Source: Patescibacteria group bacterium
GTDB taxonomy: Bacteria; Patescibacteriota; Patescibacteriia; JACRDY01
Assembly (NCBI GenBank): GCA_041650515.1
Contig: JBAZLA010000001.1
Span: forward strand, 82,710-146,709
Length of the DNA: 64,000 bases
Direction: 5' to 3'
Below the pieces are notes generated by a model. The model was not told the origin of the DNA. It saw only the letters and a list, made by a program, of their open reading frames with translations, and searched no databases. Shown here in pieces: positions 5,714 through 57,789 of the stretch (its first letter is position 1; each line of letters begins with the position of its first letter). The position numbers and the translations under genes were made by a program.

Positions 5714-6031
5714 CTATTTTTGGTCAGACCATTCGATGTCGCCTTCGGCTTCAACCCACCTTACACAGTTTTTCTGTAGAACCGAGGGATGATGCCGATC
5801 GTTCTCCAAACGGGGTTGCTCGATTCGGCCCTCGGCGAGCAGTCGGCGGACAATCTTTTCCGCCAGATCGGGGTTGGCACCCCAACACTGATCTCGATAC
5901 CGCTGAATCACCCTATCCCAATCAACGGGATTGGGGCAACGGGTGCCAGCAATGATTTTGTCTAAGGCATCGAGGGCTACTTTCCCCTCAATAATGTCTT
6001 GAATACACCACGAAAGACTTAGTCCAATCAT
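5714..6031 (-). CDS. Hypothetical protein (105 aa), moderately GC-rich
   Basis: TGGAGGGTTGTC-ATG ribosome-binding site. No recognisable motif. Confidence 0.45.
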   Translation of the reverse strand: MIGLSLSWCIQDIIEGKVALDALDKIIAGTRCPNPVDWDRVIQRYRDQCWGANPDLAEKIVRRLLAEGRIEQPRLENDRHHPSVLQKNCVRWVEAEGDIEWSDQK

Positions 6032-7620: not shown

Positions 7621-7747
7621 GTCATTGCGAGGAGCTCCGACGTAAAGTCGGAGCGACGAAGCAATCTGGTAAATATCAGGAGATTGCTTCGTCACTCCAC
7701 TTCGTGGAGTTTACCCTGAGCGAAGCCGAAGGGCTCCTCGCAATGAC
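7621..7747. repeat. Family-B palindromic repeat (gtcattgcgaggagc ... gctcctcgcaatgac)
   Basis: Perfect 15-bp terminal inverted repeats enclose the internal hairpin gacgaagcaatct...agattgcttcgtc. It abuts the start codon of the next gene. Confidence 0.8.
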
Positions 7748-7749
7748 AT

Positions 7750-9081
7750 ATGAAAAAACTACTCAAAAAAATTCTACCTAAATCAATTCTTTCCACTTAC
7801 CATTATTGTTTGGCTTGGTTAGCCGCTTTGGTTTATGGTTTTCCCGCTCGAAAATTGATTATTATCGGCGTGACTGGCACCTACGGCAAAACAACAACTA
7901 GTTATCTAACGGCTCAACTACTGGAACTAGCTGGTTTTGAAGTTGGCCTAACCTCCACTGCTTTGTTTAAAGTTGGGCCAAAGGTTTGGCTTAATGACAA
8001 AAAAATGACCATGCTTGGCCGCGCCCAAACCCATCGTCTGCTACGCCAAATGGTCAAAGCCGGCTGCCGCTACGCAATTGTCGAGACCTCCTCCGAGGGT
8101 ATTCTACAACATCGCCAGATTGGCATTCATTATGATATCTTAATTTTTACCAATCTCTCGCCCGAACATCTCGAAGCCCATGGCGGTTTTGCCAATTACA
8201 AAGCAACTAAACTCAAGTTATTCAAAAATTTTGCCAAGACACCAACCAAAGAAATCTACGGCCAACCAGTTCCTAAGGTGTTAATCGGTAATTTAGATAA
8301 TGAACATTCGCCAGACTTTTTACAATTTAGAATTAATCATAAAATCGGTTTTGGCATCACGCCGGTCCAGCCCAACCTCGCGCCAGAAACCCTAATCGGC
8401 ACTGACATCCAAGCTGATCTAGCTGGCCTAAAATTTAAAATTAACCAACGTCAGTTTGCTTCACCACTACTAGGTGAATTTAATATTTATAATAACTTAG
8501 GCGCAATCGCCGCGGTCTATTCTCAAGGCGTGACTTTAGAAAAAATTTCTGAACTCTTGCCTCAGACTAAACCCTGTCCGGGCCGGTTGGACCTGATTAA
8601 TGAGGGCCAGCCTTTTACGGTGATTGTCGATTTTGCCTTCGAACCAAAATCCCTAGAAAAACTTTACAGCGTCGTTAAACTTTTTAAAAAACCCGATTCT
8701 AAAATTATCAATTTATTAGGTAGCGGCGGCGGCGGCCGCGACAAGGCACGTCGACCAATCCTTGGTGGGTTAGTTGCTCAGAATGCCGACCAAGTTGTTA
8801 TTACCAATGAAGATCCCTATGATGAAGATCCGTTGGAGATTATCAACCAAATCGCTGCGGGAGCTAGAGCCAAAGGCAAAGTTGAGAATCAAAATCTCTG
8901 GCTAATCTTGGATCGACGCGAGGCCATTAACCAGGCCTTAAGTCTAGCCCAAAAAGATGATATAGTTCTAATATCAGGCAAGGGCTGCGAACAAGCGATC
9001 GTGACTAAAAATGACCAACTAATCCCCTGGGACGATCGCCAGGTGGCCCGCGAAGAACTCAAAAAAATCGCTAACAGCTAA
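7750..9081 (+). CDS. Mur ligase family protein (MurE-like UDP-N-acetylmuramoyl-tripeptide synthetase)
   Basis: P-loop GVTGTYGKTTT, NLSPEHLEAHGGFANY, and C-terminal GSGGGGRDKARRP...ITNEDP motifs. Confidence 0.65.
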   Translation: MKKLLKKILPKSILSTYHYCLAWLAALVYGFPARKLIIIGVTGTYGKTTTSYLTAQLLELAGFEVGLTSTALFKVGPKVWLNDKKMTMLGRAQTHRLLRQMVKAGCRYAIVETSSEGILQHRQIGIHYDILIFTNLSPEHLEAHGGFANYKATKLKLFKNFAKTPTKEIYGQPVPKVLIGNLDNEHSPDFLQFRINHKIGFGITPVQPNLAPETLIGTDIQADLAGLKFKINQRQFASPLLGEFNIYNNLGAIAAVYSQGVTLEKISELLPQTKPCPGRLDLINEGQPFTVIVDFAFEPKSLEKLYSVVKLFKKPDSKIINLLGSGGGGRDKARRPILGGLVAQNADQVVITNEDPYDEDPLEIINQIAAGARAKGKVENQNLWLILDRREAINQALSLAQKDDIVLISGKGCEQAIVTKNDQLIPWDDRQVAREELKKIANS

Positions 9082-9087
9082 AACTAT

Positions 9088-9738
9088 ATGGAACAAAATA
9101 ACCCCAGATCTGATTATGGGTTTAAATCCAGACTCTGGCTCTGGTTGCTTATTTTTGCGGCTATCGTTTTTTTGCCGCTCGGCGGCCTAACCCTTTGGCT
9201 TTGGCTAAGCCAAACACCGGCCCCAACACCAGAACTAATAGTTAATGAGCAACTAGTTGACGAAAATATTAACGCCCCCACCTTTGGCGGCGGTTTGTCA
9301 CTAGCTGGCGAACGTGAAGCTCAGACCGAAGAGGAAGCTGAGACGTTCTTGGGCTATATCACCAGTATGGAAGAAAAGTTCGGCGTCTATTATCTTTATA
9401 TTGATTATATTCAATGGCTAACTGGTGATGAGGCTAAAGAAGCCGCTTTAGAAGATGGCGACTGTACTATCTTAGAAGCTTGTGCGCCCAATAATTTTTA
9501 TATTCGTAATGACAGTAAAAAGGTCCGCCGCTTAGAACTAGCCCCAGATATTGACATCCGTATGCAGACTTACAGCTACACTCCCGATGGTAATTATAAT
9601 ATCAGCGAAAAAATCGATGCGGTAACTTTTAAAGCCATTTTTGATAAAGAATCAGAGTCACTTCTTAAAAATAGCCCCTACCGAGTCGAAATTAAGGACG
9701 GCAAAATATTCAGAATCATTGAAAAATACGTCCCTTAG
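9088..9738 (+). CDS. Hypothetical membrane-anchored protein
   Basis: N-terminal transmembrane segment. No recognisable motif. Confidence 0.4.
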   Translation: MEQNNPRSDYGFKSRLWLWLLIFAAIVFLPLGGLTLWLWLSQTPAPTPELIVNEQLVDENINAPTFGGGLSLAGEREAQTEEEAETFLGYITSMEEKFGVYYLYIDYIQWLTGDEAKEAALEDGDCTILEACAPNNFYIRNDSKKVRRLELAPDIDIRMQTYSYTPDGNYNISEKIDAVTFKAIFDKESESLLKNSPYRVEIKDGKIFRIIEKYVP

Positions 9739-29047: not shown

Positions 29048-29200
29048 GTCATTGCGAGGAGCAAAGCGACGAAGCAATCTCCTGAATAATCCACCAGATT
29101 GCTTCGTCGCTCCGCCAGTTGGCGGAACTCGCTTGGGGCTGGCTCCTTATATTGTCATCCTGACCCCCTCGGCAAAGTTTATCCTGAACGCAGCGAAAGT
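29048..29200. repeat. Family-B composite repeat
   Basis: Left arm gtcattgcgaggagc with hairpin gacgaagcaatctcctgaataatccaccagattgcttcgtc, then a second module ttgtcatcctga... Confidence 0.7.
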
Positions 29201-36526: not shown

Positions 36527-37615
36527 CTAATTACTAAACCTAAAATAAACCGTATCCCCATCTTGCACTACATAGTCTTTACCCTCGAGGCGGACCAGAC
36601 CGCGCTCTTTACAACCCGCTTCACCGTATTGAACAAAATCCTGCCAATTGCAAACTTCCGCCCGGATAAAACCTTGCTGGATATCCGTGTGAATTTTCCC
36701 CGCGGCCTCGGGCGCCTTAGCTCCCCGCGTCACGGTCCAAGCGCGCGTTTCGTCTGGACCAGTAGTCAGGAAAGTAATTAAATTCAAAATCTGATAACTT
36801 TTTTTGATCAATTTATCCAAACCGCTTTCATTCATGCCTAATTCTTTGAGATACTCCTTTCTTTCCTCATCATCTAGCTCTGCCAACTCCGCTTCAATTT
36901 TGGCTGAGATACAAACCACTCGCTCTGGATCAAGGCCTTCTAGTACGGGCAGGGCAGTGCCCTGCCCCCTACCCACCGCTGATTCGTCAACATTCATCAC
37001 ATAAATCACCGGCTTGTTGGTCAATAAATTCAAATCATGCAACGACTTTTTTTCTTCCTCATTTAAACCCAAATCGCTGACTAATTTACCCTGATTCAAA
37101 CCATCTTTAACGCGATTAACCAATTCAATATTAAATTCATCTTCTTTACTCGCGCCGCTCTTGGCTTTTTTATTTAATTCCGATAACCGGTGGGACACCG
37201 TTTCCAGATCTTTAATTGCTAACTCAGTATTAATCGTGGCAATATCCGACTGCGGGTCAACCTTATTATTAACGTGAATAATATTGGGATCAAAAAAATC
37301 GCGCACCACTTGGACAATCGCGTCCACCTCGCGAATATTAGCCAAAAATTTATTGCCTAGTCCTTCGCCAACGCTGGCGCCTTTGACCAATCCGGCGATA
37401 TCCACAAACTCAATCACCGTCGGCACAATTTTGGCTGACTTGGCCACCATGGCTAATTTTTCCAGCCGTTCGTCCGGCACCGCCACCACGCCAACGTTTG
37501 GTTCGATGGTGCAAAAAGGATAATTAGCAATATCAATTTGTTTTTTGGTCAGCGCTTTAAATAACGTTGATTTACCAACGTTGGGCAGGCCGACAATTCC
37601 GATGGCCAAAGACAT
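36527..37615 (-). CDS. ychF: Ribosome-binding ATPase YchF
   Basis: GIVGLPNVGKSTLF, NxxD, and a C-terminal TGS domain. The ORF track extends it upstream to 37672. Confidence 0.85.
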   Translation of the reverse strand: MSLAIGIVGLPNVGKSTLFKALTKKQIDIANYPFCTIEPNVGVVAVPDERLEKLAMVAKSAKIVPTVIEFVDIAGLVKGASVGEGLGNKFLANIREVDAIVQVVRDFFDPNIIHVNNKVDPQSDIATINTELAIKDLETVSHRLSELNKKAKSGASKEDEFNIELVNRVKDGLNQGKLVSDLGLNEEEKKSLHDLNLLTNKPVIYVMNVDESAVGRGQGTALPVLEGLDPERVVCISAKIEAELAELDDEERKEYLKELGMNESGLDKLIKKSYQILNLITFLTTGPDETRAWTVTRGAKAPEAAGKIHTDIQQGFIRAEVCNWQDFVQYGEAGCKERGLVRLEGKDYVVQDGDTVYFRFSN

Positions 37616-37626
37616 AAATAATAATT

Positions 37627-39315
37627 TTAATCGCTTAGAATTCTCCAGCCAGAAACAGTATAATGCTGCCAAATATAATTATCTGCTCCTTTTTCTTCCC
37701 GTTGTTTTTTCAGCCAATCTTCAACTGCAAACCAGTTGATGCCTTCTTCTTCTGTTGGACAGAATTTTGCATCCCAAACACTTTCGGTAGTAGACATCAT
37801 CTCACCATTATAAAGTTGCTTTTGAACTATTTCTTGTCTGTAATTTTTGTACCAACAGCTCCAATGGGCTAACTCAATACGCTTATAACCTTCCGCCTCA
37901 AAACCATTCACCCATTTATTTATTTCCGGCTCCAGTCTGGAAATCTGTTCATAAGCATCGGCCGAGAAACTATGTAAATATTCAATGTCTAATTCTGTGG
38001 TCTGATCAGCCAGATAACGGTCAATGTTAGTCTTGGCGATTTTAGCTTCCATATTTATGCCGGTCATAAACATCAAATAAATAATGGAGATAACCAAACC
38101 CGCTTTGACATAAGAATGATAATTCTTCTTGGCTAAACTAAAGACGGCCAAAGTGATCAGAATCAGGGCGAGATAAATGATAAAATGCCAAACTAAAAAT
38201 CGGAGATGTGTCAGGCCATAGACTTCTTGATAAAGCCACAGACGCTTGAGAGCGGAAGCCACGATCACCATGGTTTGCAGAATAAAAACCAAGATTAATA
38301 TCACCACCCGATCAACCTCATGATTTTCTTTTTTTCTATAGATAATGTAGCTGATCAGCAAAACTAAAGCGGTAACAAAAGCCAGCTGAAAAAATCCTTG
38401 ATGAACATACTCGGCGTAAGTGATGCCCCGTTGAGTGATAATCTCGTGACCGCCGAAAAAAAACATCATCTGAGCCATGATAAAAGTCAGAAAGAATAAA
38501 TTTAAAATCACCAAAAAAACCGTCGTGACTAGATTATCTTTAGACAAAGTATCGCCGGCAGAGGTTTCTGTCGCTAAATTTTTGGCATGATCTTCTTTGA
38601 ACCGAGGCTGAGACGCAAAAGCATAAAATATTCCACCAGCAAATAACAAGACCAACAAGTCTCTAAAAACTTCCCCGATTAGACGTTCGTCCAGTTTAAA
38701 GTCAAAAATACTTGTTACCCATTCTCTATATAATAAATCAGCTTCAATAAATAACGAGCCAAAAATAAAAATAAAGGGAACGCTGATCAAAATAGCCAGG
38801 ATAATTTTTTTAGTGGTTTCCTCTTTTTTGGAACCAGCCTGACTTTTAATAATTCCTTTCCAGGGTGCGGTGATTTTCGCCAGCCAATAGCTGACAAAAA
38901 TCAAAATTTCTTTAGGAAAAATTGATCTTACTTTTTTGAGCGGATAGTGCTCCGGCGCTAGCCAGAAAAGTAGCAAAACAGTCAAAAAAATACTGGCCAA
39001 AGGCGCGACAACATGAACAAAAGCATTCTCATAAACAAAAACCGACCCGGCATACCAAAGAATAGGCAGACAAAACCACATCGGCCAGAGAGTAACTAGA
39101 GACTTGGTGTTAACTAGTCTAAGAATTAGAATAATAAAGATAAACAGAGCGACAAATAGAAAAAAATTAAGGCCTAATTGGTTGCCCGTGTCTATGATGG
39201 GAAACAAAAGGTGGCAAGCAACAGCCGTCATCAAAGCCATTAAAGCGATAACATAATTGTTGATTCGAGTCATATAAACATATTTAATACTACATTTAAT
39301 TATTTGACGGTTCAA
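37627..39315 (-). CDS. Large polytopic membrane protein (about 12 transmembrane segments) with C-terminal soluble domain
   Basis: Hydrophobicity pattern only. No catalytic motif recognised. Confidence 0.45.
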   Translation of the reverse strand: MNRQIIKCSIKYVYMTRINNYVIALMALMTAVACHLLFPIIDTGNQLGLNFFLFVALFIFIILILRLVNTKSLVTLWPMWFCLPILWYAGSVFVYENAFVHVVAPLASIFLTVLLLFWLAPEHYPLKKVRSIFPKEILIFVSYWLAKITAPWKGIIKSQAGSKKEETTKKIILAILISVPFIFIFGSLFIEADLLYREWVTSIFDFKLDERLIGEVFRDLLVLLFAGGIFYAFASQPRFKEDHAKNLATETSAGDTLSKDNLVTTVFLVILNLFFLTFIMAQMMFFFGGHEIITQRGITYAEYVHQGFFQLAFVTALVLLISYIIYRKKENHEVDRVVILILVFILQTMVIVASALKRLWLYQEVYGLTHLRFLVWHFIIYLALILITLAVFSLAKKNYHSYVKAGLVISIIYLMFMTGINMEAKIAKTNIDRYLADQTTELDIEYLHSFSADAYEQISRLEPEINKWVNGFEAEGYKRIELAHWSCWYKNYRQEIVQKQLYNGEMMSTTESVWDAKFCPTEEEGINWFAVEDWLKKQREEKGADNYIWQHYTVSGWRILSD

Positions 39316-40351
39316 CCGTTAGACCCAACCTTTGCTTGACCCGTGTCAAAGTATAATCAACATCCTTCACCGTTGCTCCCTTACTCGTGCCCCAGATTTT
39401 AGTGCCCAGTTCTAAATTAACTACATTGAAGCGACTATCGGCCACTTTACTATTTTTGACCAGAAAGTCAACCAAATCCAACCATTTTTCTTTTTCCTCA
39501 ACTGGCTGACCCAATAAACCGGCATGATTATCACCTTGATAAAATAATAAGATACTCAAGATATCGGCGATGAAAAACCGATGTTGGCGGCCAAGGGCTA
39601 TTGGTCGAGCCAGATAACCTATTGCTGGCACAGTAATATGGAGATAATTAATCAATGGTAATAAATTATTTTTGATCAAATCGGCTTTTATTTTCTGGTA
39701 ATCACCATAATAGCAAACTAAACTATGAGCCAAATCAAACGTTAGGCCAACGCTATCAAGACTTTTTAACTGCGAAAAAAATTCGCCAAAATCATTTAAA
39801 TCTGAGCCAAGTTCATAATAACCATTAGCAAACCGAGGTAAACTTTCAAAATTAATAATTACCCTTTTAGCTTGAGTCAGAGGCGCAATCTCGTTTATGA
39901 CCTGTGCTAAACGCGCCAGCTCGGCTTTTTTATCACCCCGGCTGTGACCGATATGGAGTGTCAGGATAGATGGATACTTTTGATCATCAACTTGACCAAT
40001 CTGCGCTAGTTGACTAGTTAAATCAATCTGATCCGCAATTAGTGCTAGACTAGTTTTTGATTCTTGAGCATAGTTAATCCGATTAAACTGAAAATCAAAA
40101 TCGGTCAAACCATGCAGTCGGATGCCATGAGTGCCATTAGTTAATGGCATTCGATGATTAATATAGGTCTGCAAAAATTTTGCCACTCGTTGTGGCTTTA
40201 ATTGCAAAGTAGGCCAATCAATCACCGGCCGACCAACAAAAGGCCGTGGTTCCACTCCGCTGATTTGCGCTAAAATCTGAGGCACACGCCTAGATATCAA
40301 TGAATAAAGCTGAAGTGATTTATAGGTTGACGAGGGTAAAATAATATTCAT
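39296..40351 (-). CDS. Hypothetical protein, possibly TIM-barrel (weak UvdE/xylose-isomerase-like motifs)
   Basis: LHIGHS..D, FDLAHS and NYLHIT resemble the metal-binding motifs of UV-damage endonuclease / AP-endonuclease-2 folds. The resemblance is weak. Confidence 0.3.
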   Translation of the reverse strand: MNIILPSSTYKSLQLYSLISRRVPQILAQISGVEPRPFVGRPVIDWPTLQLKPQRVAKFLQTYINHRMPLTNGTHGIRLHGLTDFDFQFNRINYAQESKTSLALIADQIDLTSQLAQIGQVDDQKYPSILTLHIGHSRGDKKAELARLAQVINEIAPLTQAKRVIINFESLPRFANGYYELGSDLNDFGEFFSQLKSLDSVGLTFDLAHSLVCYYGDYQKIKADLIKNNLLPLINYLHITVPAIGYLARPIALGRQHRFFIADILSILLFYQGDNHAGLLGQPVEEKEKWLDLVDFLVKNSKVADSRFNVVNLELGTKIWGTSKGATVKDVDYTLTRVKQRLGLTVEPSNN

Positions 40352-40401: not shown

Positions 40402-41166
40402 CTACTCAATTGACTTCGAACTAATTCCCCACAAAAATTCAAACAGCTGCTTGAGGCTAAACGCCAAATCGGGTGAAAAAATAATAAAAGCAGCGTTCTC
40501 CTTGGAAGTAGAGATTACCCCAATATTATTTTCATAAACATAAATACTGGATTGAAGATCAACATATTCTGGTAAATATTTTATCTGCCGCAGATATTCT
40601 TGTTCTTGCACAAAAACAGCCGGGATATCAATCGATTTAGATTTTATTCTGAGCGAACGGCATTTCAAACCCTTGCTAACGCGCCTCTTGACCCAGCTCT
40701 CCATCCACTTAGGATCAACGGTCTGCAAAGTCAATTGCGGCGGCGAGAAATAAACGTATTCCTTTTTAGTCGTGGCCAAGATATCTTCATAAACTTCACG
40801 AGCGGAAAAAGGACCACTATGTATTTGGACAAATGGCTTTTTGTTTTTAGCAGCGTAGATAGCCAAAAAATCCGGCAATAAATCCTTTAATTGCTCTTTC
40901 TGGTGCTCAACCTTTTTGTAGAGCTCTTTAGGATGAGTCGGAATGAAAATCTTCCTTTTACCCTGCAGAATTGAGGTAATGTAGCCTCGTTCAGCTAAAA
41001 CCCGCAAATTATCGTAAATAGCGGTCCGACCCAGCTTTAAATCAACCGCTAATTCATAGGCGGTCGCTTCGCCGCGACTAAGCGCGGCCAAATAAATTTG
41101 GGCTCTTTGTTCGTCTAAACCAGTGGCTAAAAGCCAAGCCAAAAGATTGTTATTCATATATTTCAA
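40402..41166 (-). CDS. TrmB-family transcriptional regulator
   Basis: N-terminal winged helix-turn-helix (QIYLAALSRGEATAYELAVDLKLGRTAIYDNLRVLAERGYI) plus a C-terminal TrmB-like domain. Confidence 0.6.
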   Translation of the reverse strand: MKYMNNNLLAWLLATGLDEQRAQIYLAALSRGEATAYELAVDLKLGRTAIYDNLRVLAERGYITSILQGKRKIFIPTHPKELYKKVEHQKEQLKDLLPDFLAIYAAKNKKPFVQIHSGPFSAREVYEDILATTKKEYVYFSPPQLTLQTVDPKWMESWVKRRVSKGLKCRSLRIKSKSIDIPAVFVQEQEYLRQIKYLPEYVDLQSSIYVYENNIGVISTSKENAAFIIFSPDLAFSLKQLFEFLWGISSKSIE

Positions 41167-49604: not shown

Positions 49605-50567
49605 TTAATTTATTATTTTACTTAATAAAAGATCAAAAATTACCGGCACAGTGGCGTAATTAGTCTTTATTCTAACATCAGCGTCTAACAATTGTCTATA
49701 GATATCTTTTAACTTAGCCGCCGAAAAATTTTTGATTTGGCCAAGAGCCTTCTGGGCAACAAACGGGTGTACACCCAGCTGACTAGCCACCTGAGTTTTA
49801 GTTATTTGACGATTGGCTTCCGCTAGCTCCCGAGTCTGAAGCAAAATCCGAAACTGTCTGGTGAGCATGGTCAGAATATAAAGCTCATCAGCGCCAGAAT
49901 CAAACTGTTCCGACAGCAGCTGGTGGGCTAATCGACTATTTTTGGCAGCAATCGCATCAATTAGATGAAAAATATTATCATCGAATCTACCCCTAACTAA
50001 TTCGGTGACATCTTTTTCTTCAATAGAATTATCACCAGCGTAAGCTATTAATTTATCAATCTCTGAATTAAGCTGCCACAAGTCATTACCAACCAGACCA
50101 GCTAACCGTTCTAAAGCCGTCGAGCTAATCTTACCACCACGATTTCTAAACTCCACCCGCAACCAATTACGAAGCTCACTGTCTTTTAATAACTCAAACT
50201 CCTGAGCATATTTTTCTTTGATTAAACGCTTGGATAGAACACCGTCTCTTTTAAAATCATCAGTCTCTAAAAATATTAACAAAATATCTTTAATCAAATC
50301 TTCCTTACCCAGAATTTCCAAAATCTGTTTGGTCAATTCCTGGTCCGGCTCGTTGGATAATAAATTATCAATAATCACCATCCGCTTACGCGCCAAAAAC
50401 GGGGGAGTGGCGACCGCCTGGTTAAATTGAGCAATATCCAAATTTTTGCCTGACAAATAAGTTAAATTTAAAGACGATTCGTCAACCTCTTTGACGAACT
50501 TCTCTTTGAGCTCATTTAATTTTTGCCGCGCCCGGAAGGTATCCGGCCCGTAGAGGAAGAAAATCAT
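49605..50567 (-). CDS. holA: DNA polymerase III delta subunit
   Basis: MIFFLYGPD..F...KL... N-terminus, with delta-subunit helical domains. The upstream extension in the ORF track runs into a family-B repeat. Confidence 0.8.
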   Translation of the reverse strand: MIFFLYGPDTFRARQKLNELKEKFVKEVDESSLNLTYLSGKNLDIAQFNQAVATPPFLARKRMVIIDNLLSNEPDQELTKQILEILGKEDLIKDILLIFLETDDFKRDGVLSKRLIKEKYAQEFELLKDSELRNWLRVEFRNRGGKISSTALERLAGLVGNDLWQLNSEIDKLIAYAGDNSIEEKDVTELVRGRFDDNIFHLIDAIAAKNSRLAHQLLSEQFDSGADELYILTMLTRQFRILLQTRELAEANRQITKTQVASQLGVHPFVAQKALGQIKNFSAAKLKDIYRQLLDADVRIKTNYATVPVIFDLLLSKIIN

Positions 50568-50578
50568 ATTTGGTTGAC

Positions 50579-50669
50579 CGTCATTGCGAGCGTAGCGAAG
50601 CAATCTCCTGAATAATCCACCAGATTGCTTCGTCGCCCCCCGATAAATCGGGGAGCTCCTCGCAATGAC
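50579..50669. repeat. Family-B repeat (gtcattgcgagcg...gctcctcgcaatgaca)
   Basis: Carries hairpin gacgaagcaatctcctgaataatccaccagattgcttcgtc, identical to copies at 29070 and 54310. Confidence 0.8.
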
Positions 50670-50732
50670 AATAACAACAGTTTAGCTCAAAATCTAGCGA
50701 AAATCAACTAAATATGCTAGGTTAAACTAAGT

Positions 50733-52409
50733 ATGCCTAAATGTTTAATCTGCCAATCTAACTTTACCATCGAGCCTGACGACCGGATTTTTTATCAAAA
50801 AATCAATGTACCCGAGCCGGTCGAGTGCCCAGCTTGCCGCCAGCAGCTGCGCCTTTGTTGGCGTTGCGAACGCAGCCTGCACTTCCGACCCTGCGACCTT
50901 TGTGGTAGACAGCATATGTCTAGCTATGGTGCTCACACTACCTTTCCGGTTTATTGCCTAGACTGTTGGTATGGCGACAGCTGGAATCAACTTCAAAACG
51001 GCCGCGATTTTGACTTCTCTCGCCCGTTTTTTGAACAATGGGGTGAACTCCAAAAAATATCAGCTCGACCGAGCCTTTTTATTACTCAAGGTACGGTTTT
51101 TAACAGCGACTATTGTAACGCCGTCACGGCGATTAAAAACTGCTACCTGGTTTTTAGCGCTTTTGAATGCGAAGATTGTTATTATTCCAGCTTTATTCGC
51201 GAATCGTATAATCTTTTTGATTGCACTGAGGTATATTCGTCTGAACGATGTTACGATTGCATCAATTGCGACCAATGTTATGGCGTAATTGCTAGCGATA
51301 ACTGCAAAGTCTGCCGCGACTCGGCTTTTCTCTGGGATTGCCACGGCTGCAGTGACTGTTTGTTGTGTACCAATCTACGTAATCAAAAATTCTGTATCAA
51401 TAACCAGCAACTAACCGAAGCCGACTATCGCGCCAAAAGAGCCCAGATTGATCTGCGGTCCAAAACAATCTATGACCAGAGCACTCAAAAATTAAAGGAG
51501 CTCAAAAAACAAGCGATTCATAAATACTGCCAAGGATTTAATAATATTAATTGCTCTGGCGATTATTTGACTCGCTGTAAAAATTCTAAATACGCCTATG
51601 ACTGCTTCGAAAATGAGGATTGCAAATACGTCACCCGGCTTAATAGCGGCAAAGATTGTTTTGATGTCGACCATTTTGGCTCAGATGGAATAGAGCTAGT
51701 CTACTATACTGCCAGTTCTGGCACCCGCTCGTTTAATAATAAGTTCTGCAACCAAGTCTGGAGCACTGTCCAGAATATGGAATACTGCGATATGTGTCAG
51801 AACGGCTCGCATGACTGTTTCGGCTGCGCCTGTCTAAATAAAAAGCAATATTGCATCCTCAATAAACAATACTCACCAGAAGAATACGCCAAGCTTAAAG
51901 AAAAAATAATCGCCCACATGCGCCAAACCCCGTATAACGGAACGGGGCAAGCCGGTGAATATGGCCGTTTTTTCCCGCCCCACCTTTCCCACGTTCCTTA
52001 TACTGATTCATTTGCGCAAGACTATTACCCACTAACTAAGGAAAAGGCGCTAAAACTTGGCTTTCGCTGGGAAGACGATGACTCTAAATACCAACCCGCT
52101 TCCTGCCCATTGCCAGATGATTTGAATGAAATCAAGAATGATATTACCAAAGAAATTTTAGTCTGCACCAACTGCGGCAAGAATTACAAAATCATTAGTC
52201 AGGAATTGGAGTTTTATAAAACCCTCAATCTGCCCCTACCCGACCAATGTTTTAACTGCCGACTACTGGTTCGTTTGGCTCGCAAAAATCCCCGCGTACT
52301 CTATGATCATACCTGTTCTAAATGCGGCAAGATGCTAAAAACTACTTATTCTCCAAACCGGCCAGAAAAAGTTTATTGTGAAGAGTGTTATCAGAAGGAA
52401 ATATATTAA
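50733..52409 (+). CDS. Cysteine-rich repeat protein, tandem paralog A (558 aa)
   Basis: N- and C-terminal zinc-ribbon pairs (CxxC...CxxC). Internal repeats have the form xCxxCxxSxxxx(N/D)C. C-terminus is VYCEECYQKEIY. Confidence 0.6.
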   Translation: MPKCLICQSNFTIEPDDRIFYQKINVPEPVECPACRQQLRLCWRCERSLHFRPCDLCGRQHMSSYGAHTTFPVYCLDCWYGDSWNQLQNGRDFDFSRPFFEQWGELQKISARPSLFITQGTVFNSDYCNAVTAIKNCYLVFSAFECEDCYYSSFIRESYNLFDCTEVYSSERCYDCINCDQCYGVIASDNCKVCRDSAFLWDCHGCSDCLLCTNLRNQKFCINNQQLTEADYRAKRAQIDLRSKTIYDQSTQKLKELKKQAIHKYCQGFNNINCSGDYLTRCKNSKYAYDCFENEDCKYVTRLNSGKDCFDVDHFGSDGIELVYYTASSGTRSFNNKFCNQVWSTVQNMEYCDMCQNGSHDCFGCACLNKKQYCILNKQYSPEEYAKLKEKIIAHMRQTPYNGTGQAGEYGRFFPPHLSHVPYTDSFAQDYYPLTKEKALKLGFRWEDDDSKYQPASCPLPDDLNEIKNDITKEILVCTNCGKNYKIISQELEFYKTLNLPLPDQCFNCRLLVRLARKNPRVLYDHTCSKCGKMLKTTYSPNRPEKVYCEECYQKEIY

Positions 52410-52543
52410 ACTTCCCGTCATCGCGAACGAAGCGTAAGCGGAGTCGAGGGATCTAATGGTTAATTACCAATATTCTCGGAATATCCCATTAGATCCCTCC
52501 ACTCCGCCCCGACGATTACGTCGGGGCTTCGGTCGGGATGACA
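52407..52543. repeat. Family-B repeat between the Cys-rich paralogs
   Basis: gtcatcgcgaacgaagcg...gtcgggatgaca. Same subtype as 41626. Confidence 0.75.
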
Positions 52544-52553
52544 ATAAAGACCT

Positions 52554-54212
52554 ATGCCCAATTGTAAAAACTGCCAACAAAATTTCACCATTACCGAGGC
52601 CGATCGGCAGTTTTATCGCAAAATGGAAGTGCCAGAACCAACTATGTGTTTTCCCTGCCGACTGCAAAACCTCATGGCCTATCGCAATGAGAGAGTTCTT
52701 TATCCAGCTATTTGTGGTCTGTGCAAAAAATCTATTCTCGCTGCTTATCCGCCGACCCATCCTACACCTATTTATTGCTATGAATGTTGGCACACGGATA
52801 AATGGGACTCTACCACTTATGGTCAAGATTATGATTCTGACCGATCATTTTTTGAGCAATATGAAAAACTGCAAAATACAGTACCGCCCTTTGCCTTATC
52901 GGTTTTTGGCAGTATCAACTCCGACTATACCAATTGCGCCTCTTGGAATAAAAACAGCTATTTGGTCTCCGGCGCTAATTATAACGAAGACGTACTGTAC
53001 GGCAACTACGTCAACTATGATAAATATTCTTTGGATATTTCTTTTACTCATAAATCTGAGCTTTGCTACGAGATTACCGACGGCGAAAACAATTACCATG
53101 TTCGTTTTGCTACTGATAGCTCTAATTGCTCCGACTGCTCCTTTATCCACGACTGCCGCAATTGCGTCGATTGTTTTTGTTGCACTAATCTGCGCAATGC
53201 TAAATATTGTATTCTCAATAAACCATATAATGAAGCAGACTACCGGAAAAAAATGGCAGCCATCGATCTGGGCAGCTACCAAACCGTGCAACAATATCTT
53301 GGGGAATTTAAACAGCTCAAACTGCTGGCAGTTTATCAATATTATCATGGCAGTAAAAACGAAAACTCAACCGGTGATTATTTTTACTATACCAAAGACT
53401 GCCATTATTGCTTCGACGCCACCGAAGTTGAGGGTTGCGCTTATTTACAATGGTTTCATAAAGCGCGAAATTGTTACGACATCTTGGCTTGGGGTTTTGG
53501 TGCGGAAAATTGCTATAGTGGAGTAGAAGTCGGTGACAACGTTACCTTTTTAAAATTTACCCGCACCTGCCGCACTGGCTCAAGTAATCTGGAATATTGC
53601 CAAAATTGCATCGGTTGCACCGATTGTTTTGGCTGTTACTGCATGCACAATGTCAAATATTGTATTTTAAATAAACAATATTTGGAAAAAGAATACCGAG
53701 AATTAAAAGAAAAAATTATTGCCAAAACGAAAAGTAGCGGCGAATACGGCGAGTTTTTTCCAACTAAATATTCTTATTTTGGCTATAATGAAACTATCGC
53801 CAATGACTATTTTCCTTTAACTCGCGAGGAAGTACTCAAACGCGGCTGGCACTGGCAGGATAAAATGCCCGGAATTTATGACAAAGGCACCTTAACCGCC
53901 GACCAATTACCAAACAATATTAAAGAAGTTGAGGATAATATCACTAAAGAGATTCTGGTTTGTGCTAGCTGTGGCAAAAATTACAAAATTACTCTAGCCG
54001 AATTAAAACTCTATAAACAGATTACTGTGCCCTTACCTCGGCAATGTTTTGATTGTCGGCATTTAGCTAGACTAAAACAAAGAAACCCCCGACAATTATG
54101 GCACCGCCAGTGCCTGCGTCCCGGCTGCAAAAATGAATTTGAAACCACTTATGCTCCCGATCGCTCGGAGAAAGTTTATTGTGAGGAGTGCTATCAAAAA
54201 GAGATCTACTGA
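52554..54212 (+). CDS. Cysteine-rich repeat protein, tandem paralog B (552 aa)
   Basis: Same architecture and termini (MPNCKNCQ... / ...VYCEECYQKEIY) as paralog A. Confidence 0.6.
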   Translation: MPNCKNCQQNFTITEADRQFYRKMEVPEPTMCFPCRLQNLMAYRNERVLYPAICGLCKKSILAAYPPTHPTPIYCYECWHTDKWDSTTYGQDYDSDRSFFEQYEKLQNTVPPFALSVFGSINSDYTNCASWNKNSYLVSGANYNEDVLYGNYVNYDKYSLDISFTHKSELCYEITDGENNYHVRFATDSSNCSDCSFIHDCRNCVDCFCCTNLRNAKYCILNKPYNEADYRKKMAAIDLGSYQTVQQYLGEFKQLKLLAVYQYYHGSKNENSTGDYFYYTKDCHYCFDATEVEGCAYLQWFHKARNCYDILAWGFGAENCYSGVEVGDNVTFLKFTRTCRTGSSNLEYCQNCIGCTDCFGCYCMHNVKYCILNKQYLEKEYRELKEKIIAKTKSSGEYGEFFPTKYSYFGYNETIANDYFPLTREEVLKRGWHWQDKMPGIYDKGTLTADQLPNNIKEVEDNITKEILVCASCGKNYKITLAELKLYKQITVPLPRQCFDCRHLARLKQRNPRQLWHRQCLRPGCKNEFETTYAPDRSEKVYCEECYQKEIY

Positions 54213-54286
54213 GGGAGTACTTGCCCCGTGATCCGCCTTAGGCGGATTTTATGGGGCTATCAGAAGGAAATATATTAAATTCCACT

Positions 54287-54385
54287 GTCATTGCGAGCCC
54301 GCCGCAGGCGGACGAAGCAATCTCCTGGGTAAACCACCAGATTGCTTCGTCGCTCCCGCCTAAAGGCGGTCGCTCCTCGCAATGA
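54287..54385. repeat. Family-B repeat after paralog B
   Basis: Preceded by a duplicated gene-end fragment atcagaaggaaatatattaaa. Carries hairpin gacgaagcaatctcctgggtaaaccaccagattgcttcgtc. Confidence 0.8.
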
Positions 54386-54507
54386 CGCTAAAAAACTATA
54401 CCCACCTGCCAAAACTGCCAACCAGCAGTTTTTTGATTTGACATTATTTCTAAAAAGGCTAAGCTTAAACATACTCTCAATAGTTCTTTACCAAGTAGGA
54501 GGGGTTT

Positions 54508-54873
54508 ATGAAACCCAAACGCGGCAGCCAGAAGATCGAGGTGGATTTTCTGTACGTGGTGATGCCACGGGCACATCGAGTGGTCTTCGTTGCCACTCAA
54601 GACGTGCCCCACGGAGTCAACCTCGAAAAAGTGGTCCAAAAATATGTTTTAAATGAACTCAAAAAAGCGGGGGAAGGACATCGTTTCTTCTGGTATCGTC
54701 TCGACAACCACATGAGGCCGCCGAGGAACCGCCCTCGTCCAGGCGATTTCCATGTACTCCAGGTCTATTACGGATCGACGGCAAATCGGGACGCAACCAA
54801 GGATATGTCTCAACCAGATTCCAAATGGCTGCGACAGGCTGTCCATGCCCTGCTGCGGCAACTGGCGGCCTAG
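54508..54873 (+). CDS. Hypothetical protein (121 aa), GC-rich islet
   Basis: AGGAGGGGTTT-ATG. Has a downstream hairpin and T-run. Confidence 0.5.
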   Translation: MKPKRGSQKIEVDFLYVVMPRAHRVVFVATQDVPHGVNLEKVVQKYVLNELKKAGEGHRFFWYRLDNHMRPPRNRPRPGDFHVLQVYYGSTANRDATKDMSQPDSKWLRQAVHALLRQLAA

Positions 54874-54969
54874 CCGCTATCAGACACGCTGTGTCCAACC
54901 CAGTCATTACGACTGGTTTTTTATTAAAAAAAGTCGCGAAGCGACACCTTTATTTTTAATTCTTAATTT

Positions 54970-57789
54970 TTAATTTTTAATTTCTTTAGTCTCGCCCCAA
55001 TTATCTCCCACCTCGATTTTAACCTCAATCGGCACCCGGAGTTTATAAACATTCTCCATCGTTTCTTGAATCAATCTAGCCGCTTTTTTAACCACGCTAT
55101 TTTTGACTTCAAACACTAGTTCGTCGTGCACCTGCAAAACCATTTTAACTTCGTCGGGCTGGAATTCTTGCTTTAACTTCTGATCAACTTGAATCATGGC
55201 TAGTTTGATTAAATCAGCCGCCGTACCCTGGATCGGTGCGTTAATGGCCATCCGCTCGGCGGCGTTGCGCACCTGTGCCAGACCAGAACTGATCTCAGGC
55301 AAATAGCGCACTCGGCCAAAAAGCGTTTCCACATAACCATGCTCACGCGCCGAGGCTAAAGTCTCACGGATAAACTGCTCGACACCGCTAAAAGCCGAAA
55401 AATATTTGGTGATAAACTCCTGAGCTTGCTCGCGTGAAATACCAGTCCGCCAAGCTAGGCCGTAAGCACCCATGCCATAAAGCACACCAAAATTAACTTC
55501 TTTAGCATTGCGGCGCATCTCTTTGGTGACCTCCGAGAGCTTAACTCCATTGATCTCAGCCGCGGTGGCAGTATGAATGTCTTCATTATTTTGAAAAATC
55601 TCCAACATTTTCTTGTCCTCAGCTAAAGAAGCCACAATCCGCAGCTCAATTTGCGAATAGTCAGCCGCCAGGATCTGATAACCTTTTTCGGCCACAAACG
55701 CCCGACGGATCTGTCCACCCAATTCAGTCCGAATGGGAATATTCTGGAGATTAGGTTCAGACGAAGACAGGCGACCCGTTGAGGTAACAGTTTGATTAAA
55801 ACTAGTGTGCACCCGGCCAGTAATCGAATCAACTAGATCGGGCAGAGCTTGAGTATAGGTACTCTGGAGCTTAGCGAGCTCGCGGTGCTGGGAAATATAA
55901 TCAATTATTTCGTGCCGACCACGCAGTTTTTCCAGTTCGGCCGCAGCCGTCGAGATACCGGTCTTGAGTTTTTTTAGTCCACCAGTAGAGATTTTAAGCT
56001 TATCAAACAATACTTCTTTAAGCTGCAACGGCGAATCAATATTAAAGTCGGTACCAGCCAACTGATGAATTTTTTGGTCCGCGATCAGACGCTCTTTTTC
56101 AATCCGAGCATCAAGCTTAGCCAAAAATTTAGGATCAATTTTAACTCCGGTTAATTCCATTTGAACTAAAATCGGAATCAACGGCATCTCAATTTTTTCC
56201 ATCAGGCCCAAAATATTTTTGCGCTCCACTTCATTACTTAATTTTTGGTAAAGCTGATAGGTATAATCAGCATCTTCGCAACAATATTCAGCTACTCGCT
56301 CAACTGGCACTTGGTCTAACGTCAGCTGGTCTTTGCCTTTGGGACCGATTAAACTTTCAATCGGGATCATCTCATGCCCCAGCTCCGTAAAAGCCAAGGT
56401 ATCCAAATCATGCGCCCGGCTACCGGAGTTAAGTAGGTAAGAAGCAATCATGGTGTCGAAATAAACTCCTTGGACATCAATCCCAGCCTGCTGCAGAATC
56501 TCTAAATCATATTTCAAGTTGTGACCGATTTTTTGGACGTTCTTATCTTCTAAAATCTTTTTAATTTCATCGCCGATGGCCGGTAGCCGATGGCCGATGG
56601 CTAAATACCAACCCTCTCCAGCTCGCCAGCTAAACCCAATGCCAACCAACTTAGCTTCCAAGGTATTTAAACCAGTGGTTTCGGTATCAATCGCTATTAC
56701 TGCTTGTTTCTTTAATTCAACCAAAAAACTTTTTAAACTCTTGGCATCATCAACCAAATGATAACCTTTGGGCATTTTAAAATCACTGCGGGCACCAGAC
56801 TCCTGCACGGGCAGGGCACTGCCCTGACCCCTACCGACTGCAAATAAATCTCCCTGCTTTTGTTGCTGTTTACCACTCAGCTCGGGCAATCGATTTAATA
56901 GCGATTTAAACCCCAAATGTTGAAAAAGCATAAACACCGCTTGATTATCAAATCCGCGCACCGCCGCTTCCTGAAGATTAAACTTGATCGGCGCATCAGT
57001 CACAATCGTCGCTAAGTGCTTGGATAATAAGGCATCTTTCTCATGTTCTAACAGCAGTTCTTTGATCCGTGGCTTAATTTCTTCACCTTCTTGTTTTCTT
57101 GCTTTTTTGTTTTCTTGCTTTTTTGTTTTCTTGATTTCTTGATACAGGTTCTCCAACGTACCAAACTGTTGCAGCAATTCCGTAGCAGTTTTTTCACCCA
57201 CACCCTTGACCCCGGGCAGATTATCCGATGGATCACCCCGCAGGCCCTTATAATCAACCATCTGCGCTGGCGCTAAGCCATAACGCTCCTTGACGGCCGC
57301 GGCATCGTAGATAACCGTATCGTTAATGCCTTTTTTGAGCGTAAAAACGGCGGTGTCATCGTTAATCAACTGCAATGTATCCATGTCGCCAGTAACAATA
57401 ATATTTTCTACCTGCCCATCTGTCTGACGACAAATTGTGCCAATCAAATCATCGGCCTCATAATTATCTTCTTTGTAAATCGGAATATTAAACGCCCGAG
57501 CTAACTGCTCTACTACCGGAATCTGGGCATAGAGCTCGTCCGGCTGTTTTTGGCGGGTGGCTTTATACTCGGTATATTCTTGATGACGAAAAGTTTTTTT
57601 GCCTTTGTCTAAAGTCAGGACAACATAATCCGGCTTAAGATCTTTATAAATTTTGAGCAAAATCAAAGCAAAGCCGTAAACAGCATTAACCAACATCCCG
57701 TCTTTACTGGTCAGCGGCGGCAAAGCGTGGAACGCCCGATGGATCAGGGCATTGCCGTCAATAACAATTAGTTTTCCTTTCTTAGACAT
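54970..57789 (-). CDS. polA: DNA polymerase I
   Basis: 5'-3' exonuclease, 3'-5' exonuclease and polymerase (motif A DYSQIELR, motif C QVHDE) domains. A repeat-encoded K/Q/E-rich in-frame insertion sits in the inter-domain linker (57085-57145). Confidence 0.95.
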   Translation of the reverse strand: MSKKGKLIVIDGNALIHRAFHALPPLTSKDGMLVNAVYGFALILLKIYKDLKPDYVVLTLDKGKKTFRHQEYTEYKATRQKQPDELYAQIPVVEQLARAFNIPIYKEDNYEADDLIGTICRQTDGQVENIIVTGDMDTLQLINDDTAVFTLKKGINDTVIYDAAAVKERYGLAPAQMVDYKGLRGDPSDNLPGVKGVGEKTATELLQQFGTLENLYQEIKKTKKQENKKARKQEGEEIKPRIKELLLEHEKDALLSKHLATIVTDAPIKFNLQEAAVRGFDNQAVFMLFQHLGFKSLLNRLPELSGKQQQKQGDLFAVGRGQGSALPVQESGARSDFKMPKGYHLVDDAKSLKSFLVELKKQAVIAIDTETTGLNTLEAKLVGIGFSWRAGEGWYLAIGHRLPAIGDEIKKILEDKNVQKIGHNLKYDLEILQQAGIDVQGVYFDTMIASYLLNSGSRAHDLDTLAFTELGHEMIPIESLIGPKGKDQLTLDQVPVERVAEYCCEDADYTYQLYQKLSNEVERKNILGLMEKIEMPLIPILVQMELTGVKIDPKFLAKLDARIEKERLIADQKIHQLAGTDFNIDSPLQLKEVLFDKLKISTGGLKKLKTGISTAAAELEKLRGRHEIIDYISQHRELAKLQSTYTQALPDLVDSITGRVHTSFNQTVTSTGRLSSSEPNLQNIPIRTELGGQIRRAFVAEKGYQILAADYSQIELRIVASLAEDKKMLEIFQNNEDIHTATAAEINGVKLSEVTKEMRRNAKEVNFGVLYGMGAYGLAWRTGISREQAQEFITKYFSAFSGVEQFIRETLASAREHGYVETLFGRVRYLPEISSGLAQVRNAAERMAINAPIQGTAADLIKLAMIQVDQKLKQEFQPDEVKMVLQVHDELVFEVKNSVVKKAARLIQETMENVYKLRVPIEVKIEVGDNWGETKEIKN

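Follow-up and report, generated by a model that had tools for sequence, protein, structure and literature searches.

A tandem gene pair from a large Patescibacteria family of predicted zinc-capped solenoid proteins and its positional link to orphan VirD4-like ATPases

Zinc binding by the PF23477 domain has been shown by inductively coupled plasma mass spectrometry for small proteins of Methanosarcina mazei (PMC12704099). A 2025 survey of type IV coupling proteins (T4CPs) counted 5,713 homologues in 2,918 Patescibacteria genomes, of which just 148 lie near virB4, and its authors left it as a possibility that the orphan T4CPs were "exapted for other functions" (PMC12102498). In this report, we describe two adjacent genes, A and B, in a 64,000-nucleotide stretch of the genome of a Patescibacteria group bacterium (assembly GCA_041650515.1, contig JBAZLA010000001.1, positions 82,710 to 146,709; hereafter the window); their products combine predicted zinc modules with a Cys-rich solenoid, and their relatives frequently adjoin genes for T4CP-like ATPases. 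Across the phylum such genes tend to stand in arrays, of which this pair is a small and ordinary case, and its family is large, unnamed, Patescibacteria-wide and almost confined to the tiny-celled Patescibacteria. The feature that merits follow-up is the positional link of this family to TrmB regulators and orphan T4CP-like ATPases.

Gene A (50733-52409, plus strand; 558 amino acids, 48 Cys) and gene B (52554-54212, plus strand; 552 amino acids, 39 Cys) are open reading frames (ORFs) of the same architecture, and the original prediction that they are tandem paralogues was confirmed, as they lie on the same strand and align end to end in BLASTP with 42% identity (E 2e-146). The conserved termini are as first described, with both N-termini fitting MPxCxxCQxNFTI...DRxFYxKxxVPEP and the last 14 residues of the two proteins identical (EKVYCEECYQKEIY). 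Both are indeed rich in Cys, although the share first put at about 10% was measured at 8.6% (48/558) for gene A and 7.1% (39/552) for gene B. The pair is bordered by holA (49605-50603, minus strand) on one side and polA (54970-57789, minus strand) on the other, and the product of gene A is identical to hypothetical protein P0001 of a Patescibacteria metagenome-assembled genome (MAG).

Two internal duplications define the architecture of these proteins. Residues 3-80 of gene A (the N zinc module; 50739-50972, plus strand) match residues 477-554 (the C zinc module; 52161-52394, plus strand) with an hhalign probability of 99.8% (E 4e-30), and residues 100-240 (solenoid repeat R1; 51030-51452, plus strand) match residues 251-393 (R2; 51483-51911, plus strand) in a profile-profile comparison with a probability of 99.9% (E 9e-37). 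The protein is therefore composed of a zinc module, R1, R2, an acidic linker (plus strand, between R2 and the C zinc module) and a second zinc module; the modules of gene B lie at about 52560-52793 and about 53964-54197, also on the plus strand. Each terminal module is a zf_Tbcl-like Cys4 ribbon followed by an Arg-rich helix and a Cys4 treble clef (CxxC-x17-CxxC in gene A), and its two Cys4 sites make four predicted zinc sites per protein, all of which are retained in genes A and B. Residues C528, C531, C549 and C552 of gene A are invariant in 120 sequences. Across the 323 full-length family members used for the Cys analysis, C4, C7, C32, C35, C528, C531, C549 and C552 are nearly invariant, and the terminal Cys columns 57/75/78 (the N-terminal counterpart of the treble clef; r 0.97-0.99) and 481/506/509 (r 0.7-0.98) are co-present or co-absent, so that these cysteines appear to behave as ligand sets. 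The match between the two modules and the retention or loss of their Cys as sets bear out the terminal zinc-ribbon pairs that had been proposed. AlphaFold2 produced confident models of both proteins, with a predicted local distance difference test (pLDDT) of 88.7 and a predicted template modelling score (pTM) of 0.90 for gene A, and a pLDDT of 85.8 and a pTM of 0.89 for gene B; the termini exceed a pLDDT of 90, and R1 and R2, at 65-80, consist of very short strands about six residues apart. Foldseek searches of the PDB with both models gave no match below E 1, and the modelled fold is one without a solved relative detectable at Foldseek sensitivity.

The central region follows a different logic. 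Its Cys recur with a period of 3 (spectral power 25 in R1) and its conservation with a period of 12, and the Cys-Cys spacings rank in the order 3 > 9 > 6 > 12. Central Cys columns exchange with Ser (38%) and with Val, Leu or Ile (32%), the central Cys count ranges from 9 to 35 per protein across members, and good conservation is limited to the C203/206/209/212 cluster plus C355, C365 and C374. Among about 50 variable central Cys columns, no pair covaries at r >= 0.45. Because Cys, Ser and Val exchange freely and do not covary, these residues are best seen as ladder positions of a solenoid, and not as discrete metal sites or obligate disulfides. Thus, the centre is an internally duplicated short-strand solenoid in which every third residue, on the ladder, is Cys, Ser or Val interchangeably, and the earlier guess of a Cys-ladder solenoid is supported by both periods and by the exchange of Cys with Ser, Val and Leu. 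The terminal Arg-rich helices carry a net charge of +5, as opposed to the acidic R1 (-5) and linker (-7). The localisation check suggested with the original prediction returned no membrane-like segment in 325 members (Kyte-Doolittle, 19-residue window, >= 1.6) and no signal peptide, the N-terminus being a zinc knuckle, and the family proteins are predicted to be cytoplasmic.

A word-seeded protein search with this family returned >6,000 matches, nearly all of about 550 amino acids, labelled "hypothetical" or "zinc-ribbon domain containing" and coming from Falkowbacteria, Gracilibacteria, Peregrinibacteria and others. When 1.84 billion representatives were searched exhaustively with a profile, 6,316 matched, 2,504 of them with E<1e-30, and the family comprises >2,500 clusters at 50% identity. 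At least 588 family loci were confirmed in a scan of one genome per species, and the best 79 of these are almost all from Patescibacteria; the family is essentially absent from the 2.9 million viral contigs scanned, which yielded one partial match.

No characterised family claims the two paralogues. The sole Pfam family found for them is PF23477 (zf_Tbcl_2), which matches residues 521-556 of gene A at 31.6 bits, above the cut-off of 27, and residues 47-82, the best stretch of gene B, at 23.3 bits, below it. NCBIfam offered just TIGR04272, below its cut-off for both genes, and the PDB sequence and profile searches just a marginal match to a second LIM zinc finger (E 1e-3). Foldseek matches in BFVD were confined to the zinc-ribbon ends, the PADLOC defence models matched neither gene, and one uncharacterised PHROGs family was matched at 7e-5. 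Two known identities had been named in the original prediction as possible alternatives, and neither was found. The DnaJ-type zinc finger PF00684 (CxxCxGxG) gave no match at E<=1 for A or B and does match a true DnaJ neighbour at other loci. A radical-SAM/SPASM maturase partner or Fe-S ferredoxin-like protein was not supported, since A and B have no Pfam or NCBIfam match of this kind and the central Cys lack covariation and are swapped with Ser, Val or Leu; moreover, no radical-SAM gene is among the recurrent neighbours of family loci. A pentapeptide-repeat DNA mimic was not supported either, as A and B have no Pfam match to PF00805 and their periods are 3 and 12, with a power of about 0.2 at period 5. 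The family was not described in any paper found by literature searches on the Pfam and TIGRFAM names and on tandem, Cys-rich families of these bacteria. One member, P0146 (731 amino acids), bears an N-terminal GNAT acetyltransferase domain (PF00583, E 3e-8), the result of either an uncommon fusion or two genes called as one.

We then surveyed 162 loci by ORF calling and a family hidden Markov model. Same-strand tandem arrays, of 2-8 genes, occur in 115/155 loci, and the loci overall hold 1 to 8 copies each; the densest array packs 8 copies into 13.6 kb, and two contigs of one assembly carry 8 + 5 copies, that is, at least 13. This survey of copy number, which had been suggested at the outset, thus shows tandem arrays to be the rule instead of a conserved single copy. 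The copies have diverged deeply and rather evenly, with a median identity of 42% between adjacent paralogues and an identity of 38% between genomes. A syntenic locus in another genome, L001, has the order rmuC ... rpsT, holA, A-like, B-like, polA, and its orthologues are 65% identical to gene A and 74% identical to gene B; a metagenome scan with gene B found one close relative, on a flankless contig. Paralogue order is also kept between other genomes, for example L042 and L070. Synonymous divergence (dS) is saturated for A versus B and for the window versus L001 orthologues, so that the ratio of nonsynonymous to synonymous divergence (dN/dS, or omega) is uninformative there, and the comparison of the two paralogues that had been proposed gave no usable value; omega is 0.05-0.15 for every family pair whose dS could be measured, one of them an in-array duplicate with 90% identity, and such values indicate purifying selection. 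Because each copy has its own orthologue and omega is this low, we conclude that the copies are individually conserved, and the diversifying selection originally suspected did not hold. The A/B split, with its dS saturated, is ancient, and it is older than the divergence of the window and L001.

The neighbours were analysed by clustering 661 neighbouring ORFs, with 133 informative loci, and two partners recur. A VirD4/TraD/TrwB-like (T4CP-like) ATPase is present in 28/133 loci, and 32/34 of its copies are co-stranded with the array, at a median gap of 81.5 nucleotides. A TrmB-family regulator of about 250 amino acids is present in 26/133 loci, with 24/27 copies divergent and most of them 25-185 nucleotides upstream of the first array gene. 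A typical map therefore reads TrmB (minus), n family genes (plus), ATPase (plus), as in L059, L062, L048 and L041. The adjacent ATPases are only distantly related to curated VirD4/TraD families, and the N-terminal membrane anchor that marks true coupling proteins is missing from almost all of them. The treble clef of the family is present in five, one example matching PF23477 at E 3.5e-11.

Taken as a whole, these data show two ancient, individually conserved members of a Patescibacteria-wide family of predicted zinc-capped solenoid proteins, and they are best explained by an adaptor role at orphan ATPases, an explanation that we put forward tentatively and rate somewhat short of an even chance. 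With low confidence, we propose that orphan, hexameric, soluble T4CP-like ATPases draw on the paralogues as a set of adaptor or specificity subunits. Docking, whether on nucleic acid, on the ATPase or on both, would be the task of the conserved basic zinc modules, and some of the ATPases carry the same treble clef. Each paralogue would owe its own client to the acidic solenoid, which is more variable; the pair in the window would then be a minimal two-member array without an ATPase within 64 kb. Several observations weigh against this adaptor model. No T4CP-like ORF is present in the 64-kb window, whose sole TrmB-like gene (40402-41166, minus strand) is 10 kb from the pair, and about 80% of the informative loci have no ATPase within 4 kb. 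Arrays also lie among housekeeping genes (dnaK, dnaJ, pilB, rseP, frr and holA/polA), the N-terminal Arg helix is less basic in gene A (+3) and gene B (+2) than the family median, and the large excess of T4CP-like neighbours (38/661) over about two per genome is reckoned against a literature baseline and not against a matched control.

The ATPase and regulator genes have further features of their own. T4CP-like genes beside arrays are often in tandem, in two or three copies (L112 3-3640; L093 2-3981; L027 476-4203; L061 2624-5974), and they fall into length classes of about 490 amino acids, about 600-770 amino acids with a treble-clef finger, and about 745 amino acids, the last with a 330-residue N-terminal extension matching no Pfam model. 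The TrmB-like gene of the window is 21-27% identical to array-flanking TrmBs of other genomes and heads a minus-strand run of three ORFs (36527-40351). In L050, L042, L128, L064, L068 and L056 (among them Paceibacteria, Nomurabacteria and unclassified MAGs), dnaK and/or dnaJ are near family and T4CP-like genes, which in L050 lie between dnaK and dnaJ.

The gene pair is also embedded in palindromic elements. A palindromic element like the repetitive extragenic palindromic (REP) sequences lies in the divergent holA/gene A spacer (copy 1, 50579-50670; fold -47.9 kcal/mol, z -8.4), in which an outer stem GTCATTGCGAG/CTCGCAATGAC encloses two inner hairpins, and a second such element (copy 3, 54285-54386; fold -59.9 kcal/mol, z -7.9) follows gene B; copies 1 and 3 are 82% identical (copy 1 being aligned with 54313-54394). 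Between the genes lies a divergent variant (52411-52550; fold -76.4 kcal/mol, z -10.1) with an outer stem GTCATCGCGA/TCGGGATGAC, an inner hairpin with 22-nucleotide arms and a second hairpin, which shares with copies 1 and 3 just the outer stem and the three-way architecture. Thus, of the palindromes of one family (family B) originally seen after each gene, the one after gene B stands, and the one after gene A is related in outer stem and architecture only. An Rfam search of 50400-55000 gave nothing real, with a sub-threshold chance match only. The element family is not confined to the gene pair, since members occur elsewhere in the window (7621-7747, and half sites at 29048 and 43144); within the member at 7621-7747 is the CCCTGAGCGAAGCCGAAGGG core, which gene-end scars of other genomes also carry (see below). 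In L001, AT-rich palindromes unrelated in sequence to the GC-rich ones of the window occupy the same three slots (5929-6000, 7648-7760 and 9518-9587). The old A/B split, the unrelated L001 palindromes and the copies elsewhere in the window place these elements outside the duplication unit, which had been thought to include a palindrome and a gene-end fragment, the latter belonging to a separate phenomenon. We conclude that the palindromes are later occupants of intergenic slots, where they probably act as RNA-end or terminator structures. The called holA ORF begins within copy 1 (50567-50603 region), so that its first residues, MLRYARNDG, are translated element, and the true holA start is probably the ATG at 50567 (MIFFLYGPD).

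The separate phenomenon is a double gene end, or scar, which follows the gene B stop codon (54213-54279, plus strand; hairpin z -3.7). It consists of a degenerate copy of C-E-E-C codons (54213-54221, GGGAGTACT), a hairpin (54222-54257, TGCCCCGT...ATGGGGC) and a last piece (54258-54279, TATCAGAAGGAAATATATTAAA (TATCAGAAGGAAATATATTAA)) that encodes YQKEIY plus a stop and is identical to the end of gene A; for this exact copy of 22 nucleotides (54258-54279 = 52389-52410), the chance expectation is none. The copied gene-end fragment of the original prediction is therefore real, but it occupies 54258-54279 and not the position 54264 first given. A corresponding scar follows gene B in L001 (9424-9519), with GAGGAGTGCT, a hairpin that has the same closing stem and a different interior, and then TACCAGAAGGAGATATATTAA, so that the arrangement is common to the window and L001 despite saturated synonymous sites in the genes. 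Across the family, 14-16/307 distinct gene ends (about 5%) have a scar of this kind; in 14 of them the gene's own last six codons and stop are repeated 24-127 nucleotides downstream, and an independent pattern scan found 10 double ends in sense and 0 in the antisense control. Further double gene ends are present at L022, L074, L143, L117, L019, L045, L137, L028, L063, L119, L091, L034 and L024. The common form is the gene body, A (C-E-x-C codons), L1 (the last six codons and stop), A' (the A of that gene repeated perfectly in inverted orientation, over 10-12 nucleotides), a REP-like core CCCTGAGCG...TCGAAGGG, G-E-E-C codons and L2; the core is also found elsewhere in these genomes, including 7714-7733 of the window. 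Residues peculiar to the individual gene recur in both L1 and L2 (for example, YLKTVY/YLKTVY and CNQKESI/CNQKEVI). At L143, the relic keeps an ATGA overlap with the next gene, an overlap that the insert-free orthologue L145 has at its real end; the L143 relic is therefore the ancestral end, and the present end lies within a 64-nucleotide insertion or duplication. As a working idea, a break or insertion hot spot 21-32 nucleotides before the stop would be repaired by duplication of the gene end, and the A:A' hairpin may afterwards be kept by selection or templated correction.

Five simpler origins of the double ends were rejected. A simple recent duplication is contradicted by the finding that L1 and L2 differ in 55/83 amino-acid-identical codons, and a genome-wide REP with fixed terminal repeats by the match of the inverted arm to each gene's own codons. 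Stop-codon read-through does not explain them, since three in-frame stops are present in L001, even though the copy in the window keeps the frame; nor does a diversity-generating retroelement, as the copy differences are mostly synonymous and no nearby reverse transcriptase was noticed, none having been searched for. Integron attC-type cassettes do not fit, because the same family is repeated and many arrays are without palindromes.

Beyond the third palindrome lies a relic of the 5' end of a family gene (54396-54432, plus strand; overlapping a terminator-like hairpin at 54411-54432), where ATA CCC ACC TGC CAA AAC TGC CAA corresponds to the gene B start ATG CCC AAT TGT AAA AAC TGC CAA; a repeat search aligned 52533-52578 with 54377-54422 at 76% identity over 46 nucleotides. 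The position of this relic indicates that the array lost or rearranged sequence here, and suggests either that a third copy once stood here and was lost or that an A/B junction was copied. Nearer to polA, a 121-amino-acid ORF (54508-54873, plus strand) has a good ribosome-binding site and is set in a stretch rich in GC (up to 0.585); this ORFan is its own only match among 5.8 billion proteins and is absent at L001, where the scar abuts polA.

A more far-reaching explanation joins the two lines of evidence, the family being the missing partner of the orphan, exapted VirD4-like ATPases of Patescibacteria, in a phylum-specific cytoplasmic machine under a TrmB-type repressor, and the scars marking a break or insertion hot spot; we regard this combination as doubtful. 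In such a machine, a soluble hexameric translocase would receive different clients, nucleic acids or proteins, from a panel of zinc-capped solenoid adaptors. The hot spot would be sequence-specific and lie in the conserved ...VYCEECY... codons, and the genes would survive it solely via end-duplicating repair.

Other explanations dispense with the ATPase or assign it a different task. The proteins may be autonomous nucleic-acid binders (structural, regulatory or mimic) whose zinc modules grip DNA or RNA at a fixed spacing imposed by the acidic solenoid, with the T4CP neighbourhood incidental. Binding to nucleic acids is common among zinc ribbon and treble clef folds, the conserved Arg-rich helices stand between Cys4 sites at both ends of a protein with an acidic centre, the pair in the window lies between the replication genes holA and polA, and the ATPase is missing from most loci. 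We nevertheless consider such autonomy unlikely, as the Pfam, NCBIfam and PDB profile searches matched no DNA- or RNA-binding family, the 2 to 13 or more conserved paralogues per 1-Mb genome are hard to explain for a generic binder, and the adjacency to T4CP-like genes is frequent, short-gapped and on the same strand. Alternatively, a soluble HerA/FtsK/VirD4-like NTPase and an invader-sensing panel of paralogues might form a conflict or defence module under TrmB-type control, in line with the multi-paralogue arrays that adjoin an NTPase, the weak similarity of the ATPase to PADLOC mad8 (E 4e-18) and HerA models, and the weak resemblance of the TrmB-like regulator to CRISPR-associated HTH regulators. 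This proposal is quite improbable in view of the lack of a PADLOC match for the family itself, its near-absence from the 2.9 million viral contigs and its housekeeping neighbours; in addition, strong purifying selection and deep orthology are unlike the turnover of defence islands.

The paralogues could also be exported effectors that the T4CP-like ATPase recognises by their termini, which are conserved, and that a type IV secretion or pilus apparatus delivers to the host bacterium, since T4CPs are generally known to recruit substrates and their genes are often beside substrate genes (PMC12102498). The conserved terminal modules could serve as the signal, and pilB is an occasional neighbour. 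Export nonetheless seems very unlikely, as four-zinc, solenoid-stabilised proteins are poor substrates for an unfolding-dependent channel, no signal peptide was found, and the adjacent ATPases almost all lack the membrane anchor. Very few T4CP genes of Patescibacteria, moreover, are near virB4 (PMC12102498). Finally, the variant-surface-type Cys-ladder proteins under diversifying selection that were originally envisaged are scarcely credible, for although the tandem copies are divergent (42% identity) and the CxxC spacing is regular, the 325 members have no signal peptide or membrane-like segment, omega is 0.05-0.15, orthologues are conserved in order (window/L001 and L042/L070) and the central Cys are without the pairwise covariation expected of obligate disulfides.

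The adaptor model is of interest because the adjacency gives a testable partner for roughly two orphan T4CP homologues per Patescibacteria genome (PMC12102498), and, if true, the ATPase link would open a route into phylum-specific, unexplained cell biology. Should the link fail, this is still one of the larger uncharacterised families of the phylum, to which some genomes of about 1 Mb devote about 2% (at least 13 genes in one assembly), and a good target for structural genomics. The double-gene-end scars, in turn, may reveal a mutational or mobile-element mechanism that spares gene function while inserting hairpins.

Compared with known systems, the family combines familiar ends with an unfamiliar centre. 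Both terminal modules share the first knuckle pair with F-x-I-T...FY of zf_Tbcl (PF13451, 'probable zinc ribbon / treble clef'), a family of no known function that many members match, genes A and B themselves falling below threshold. At its C-terminus, gene A matches PF23477 over 36 residues and has the C-x2-C-x17-C-x2-C spacing of the PF23477/TIGR04272 small zinc proteins, such as M. mazei A00184 and A01980, whereas the first knuckle of the C-terminal copy in gene B is C-x4-C. The M. mazei proteins are single domains of a few dozen residues; here, in contrast, the domain is one of four zinc sites capping 550 amino acids, and genes A and B carry a 300-residue solenoid that matches no Pfam model. 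The short strands about every 6 residues in the models recall left-handed beta-helix (hexapeptide) proteins such as LpxD, which is among the best Foldseek hits, yet at E about 5, a template modelling (TM) score below 0.1 and a root-mean-square deviation of 18 A. This fold was rejected, since A and B have no Pfam Hexapep match and no significant structural match, and a Cys period of 3 is not that of a hexapeptide. Tenebrio molitor antifreeze protein is a 12-residue Cys-ladder beta-helix, secreted and disulfide-bonded. By description, the family shares with it the 12-residue period, the regular Cys and the narrow solenoid; unlike it, the family is predicted to be cytoplasmic, and its Cys are replaceable by Ser, Val or Leu without covariation. 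With respect to gene organisation, the closest likeness is to the VirB2 pilin arrays of Patescibacteria, which are likewise tandem, with 2-11 divergent paralogues, and have been discussed together with type IV secretion-related genes (PMC12102498). The pilins are small, secreted, about 25% identical and encoded near virB4, whereas the proteins described here are 550 amino acids long, apparently cytoplasmic, about 42% identical and encoded near orphan T4CP-like genes.

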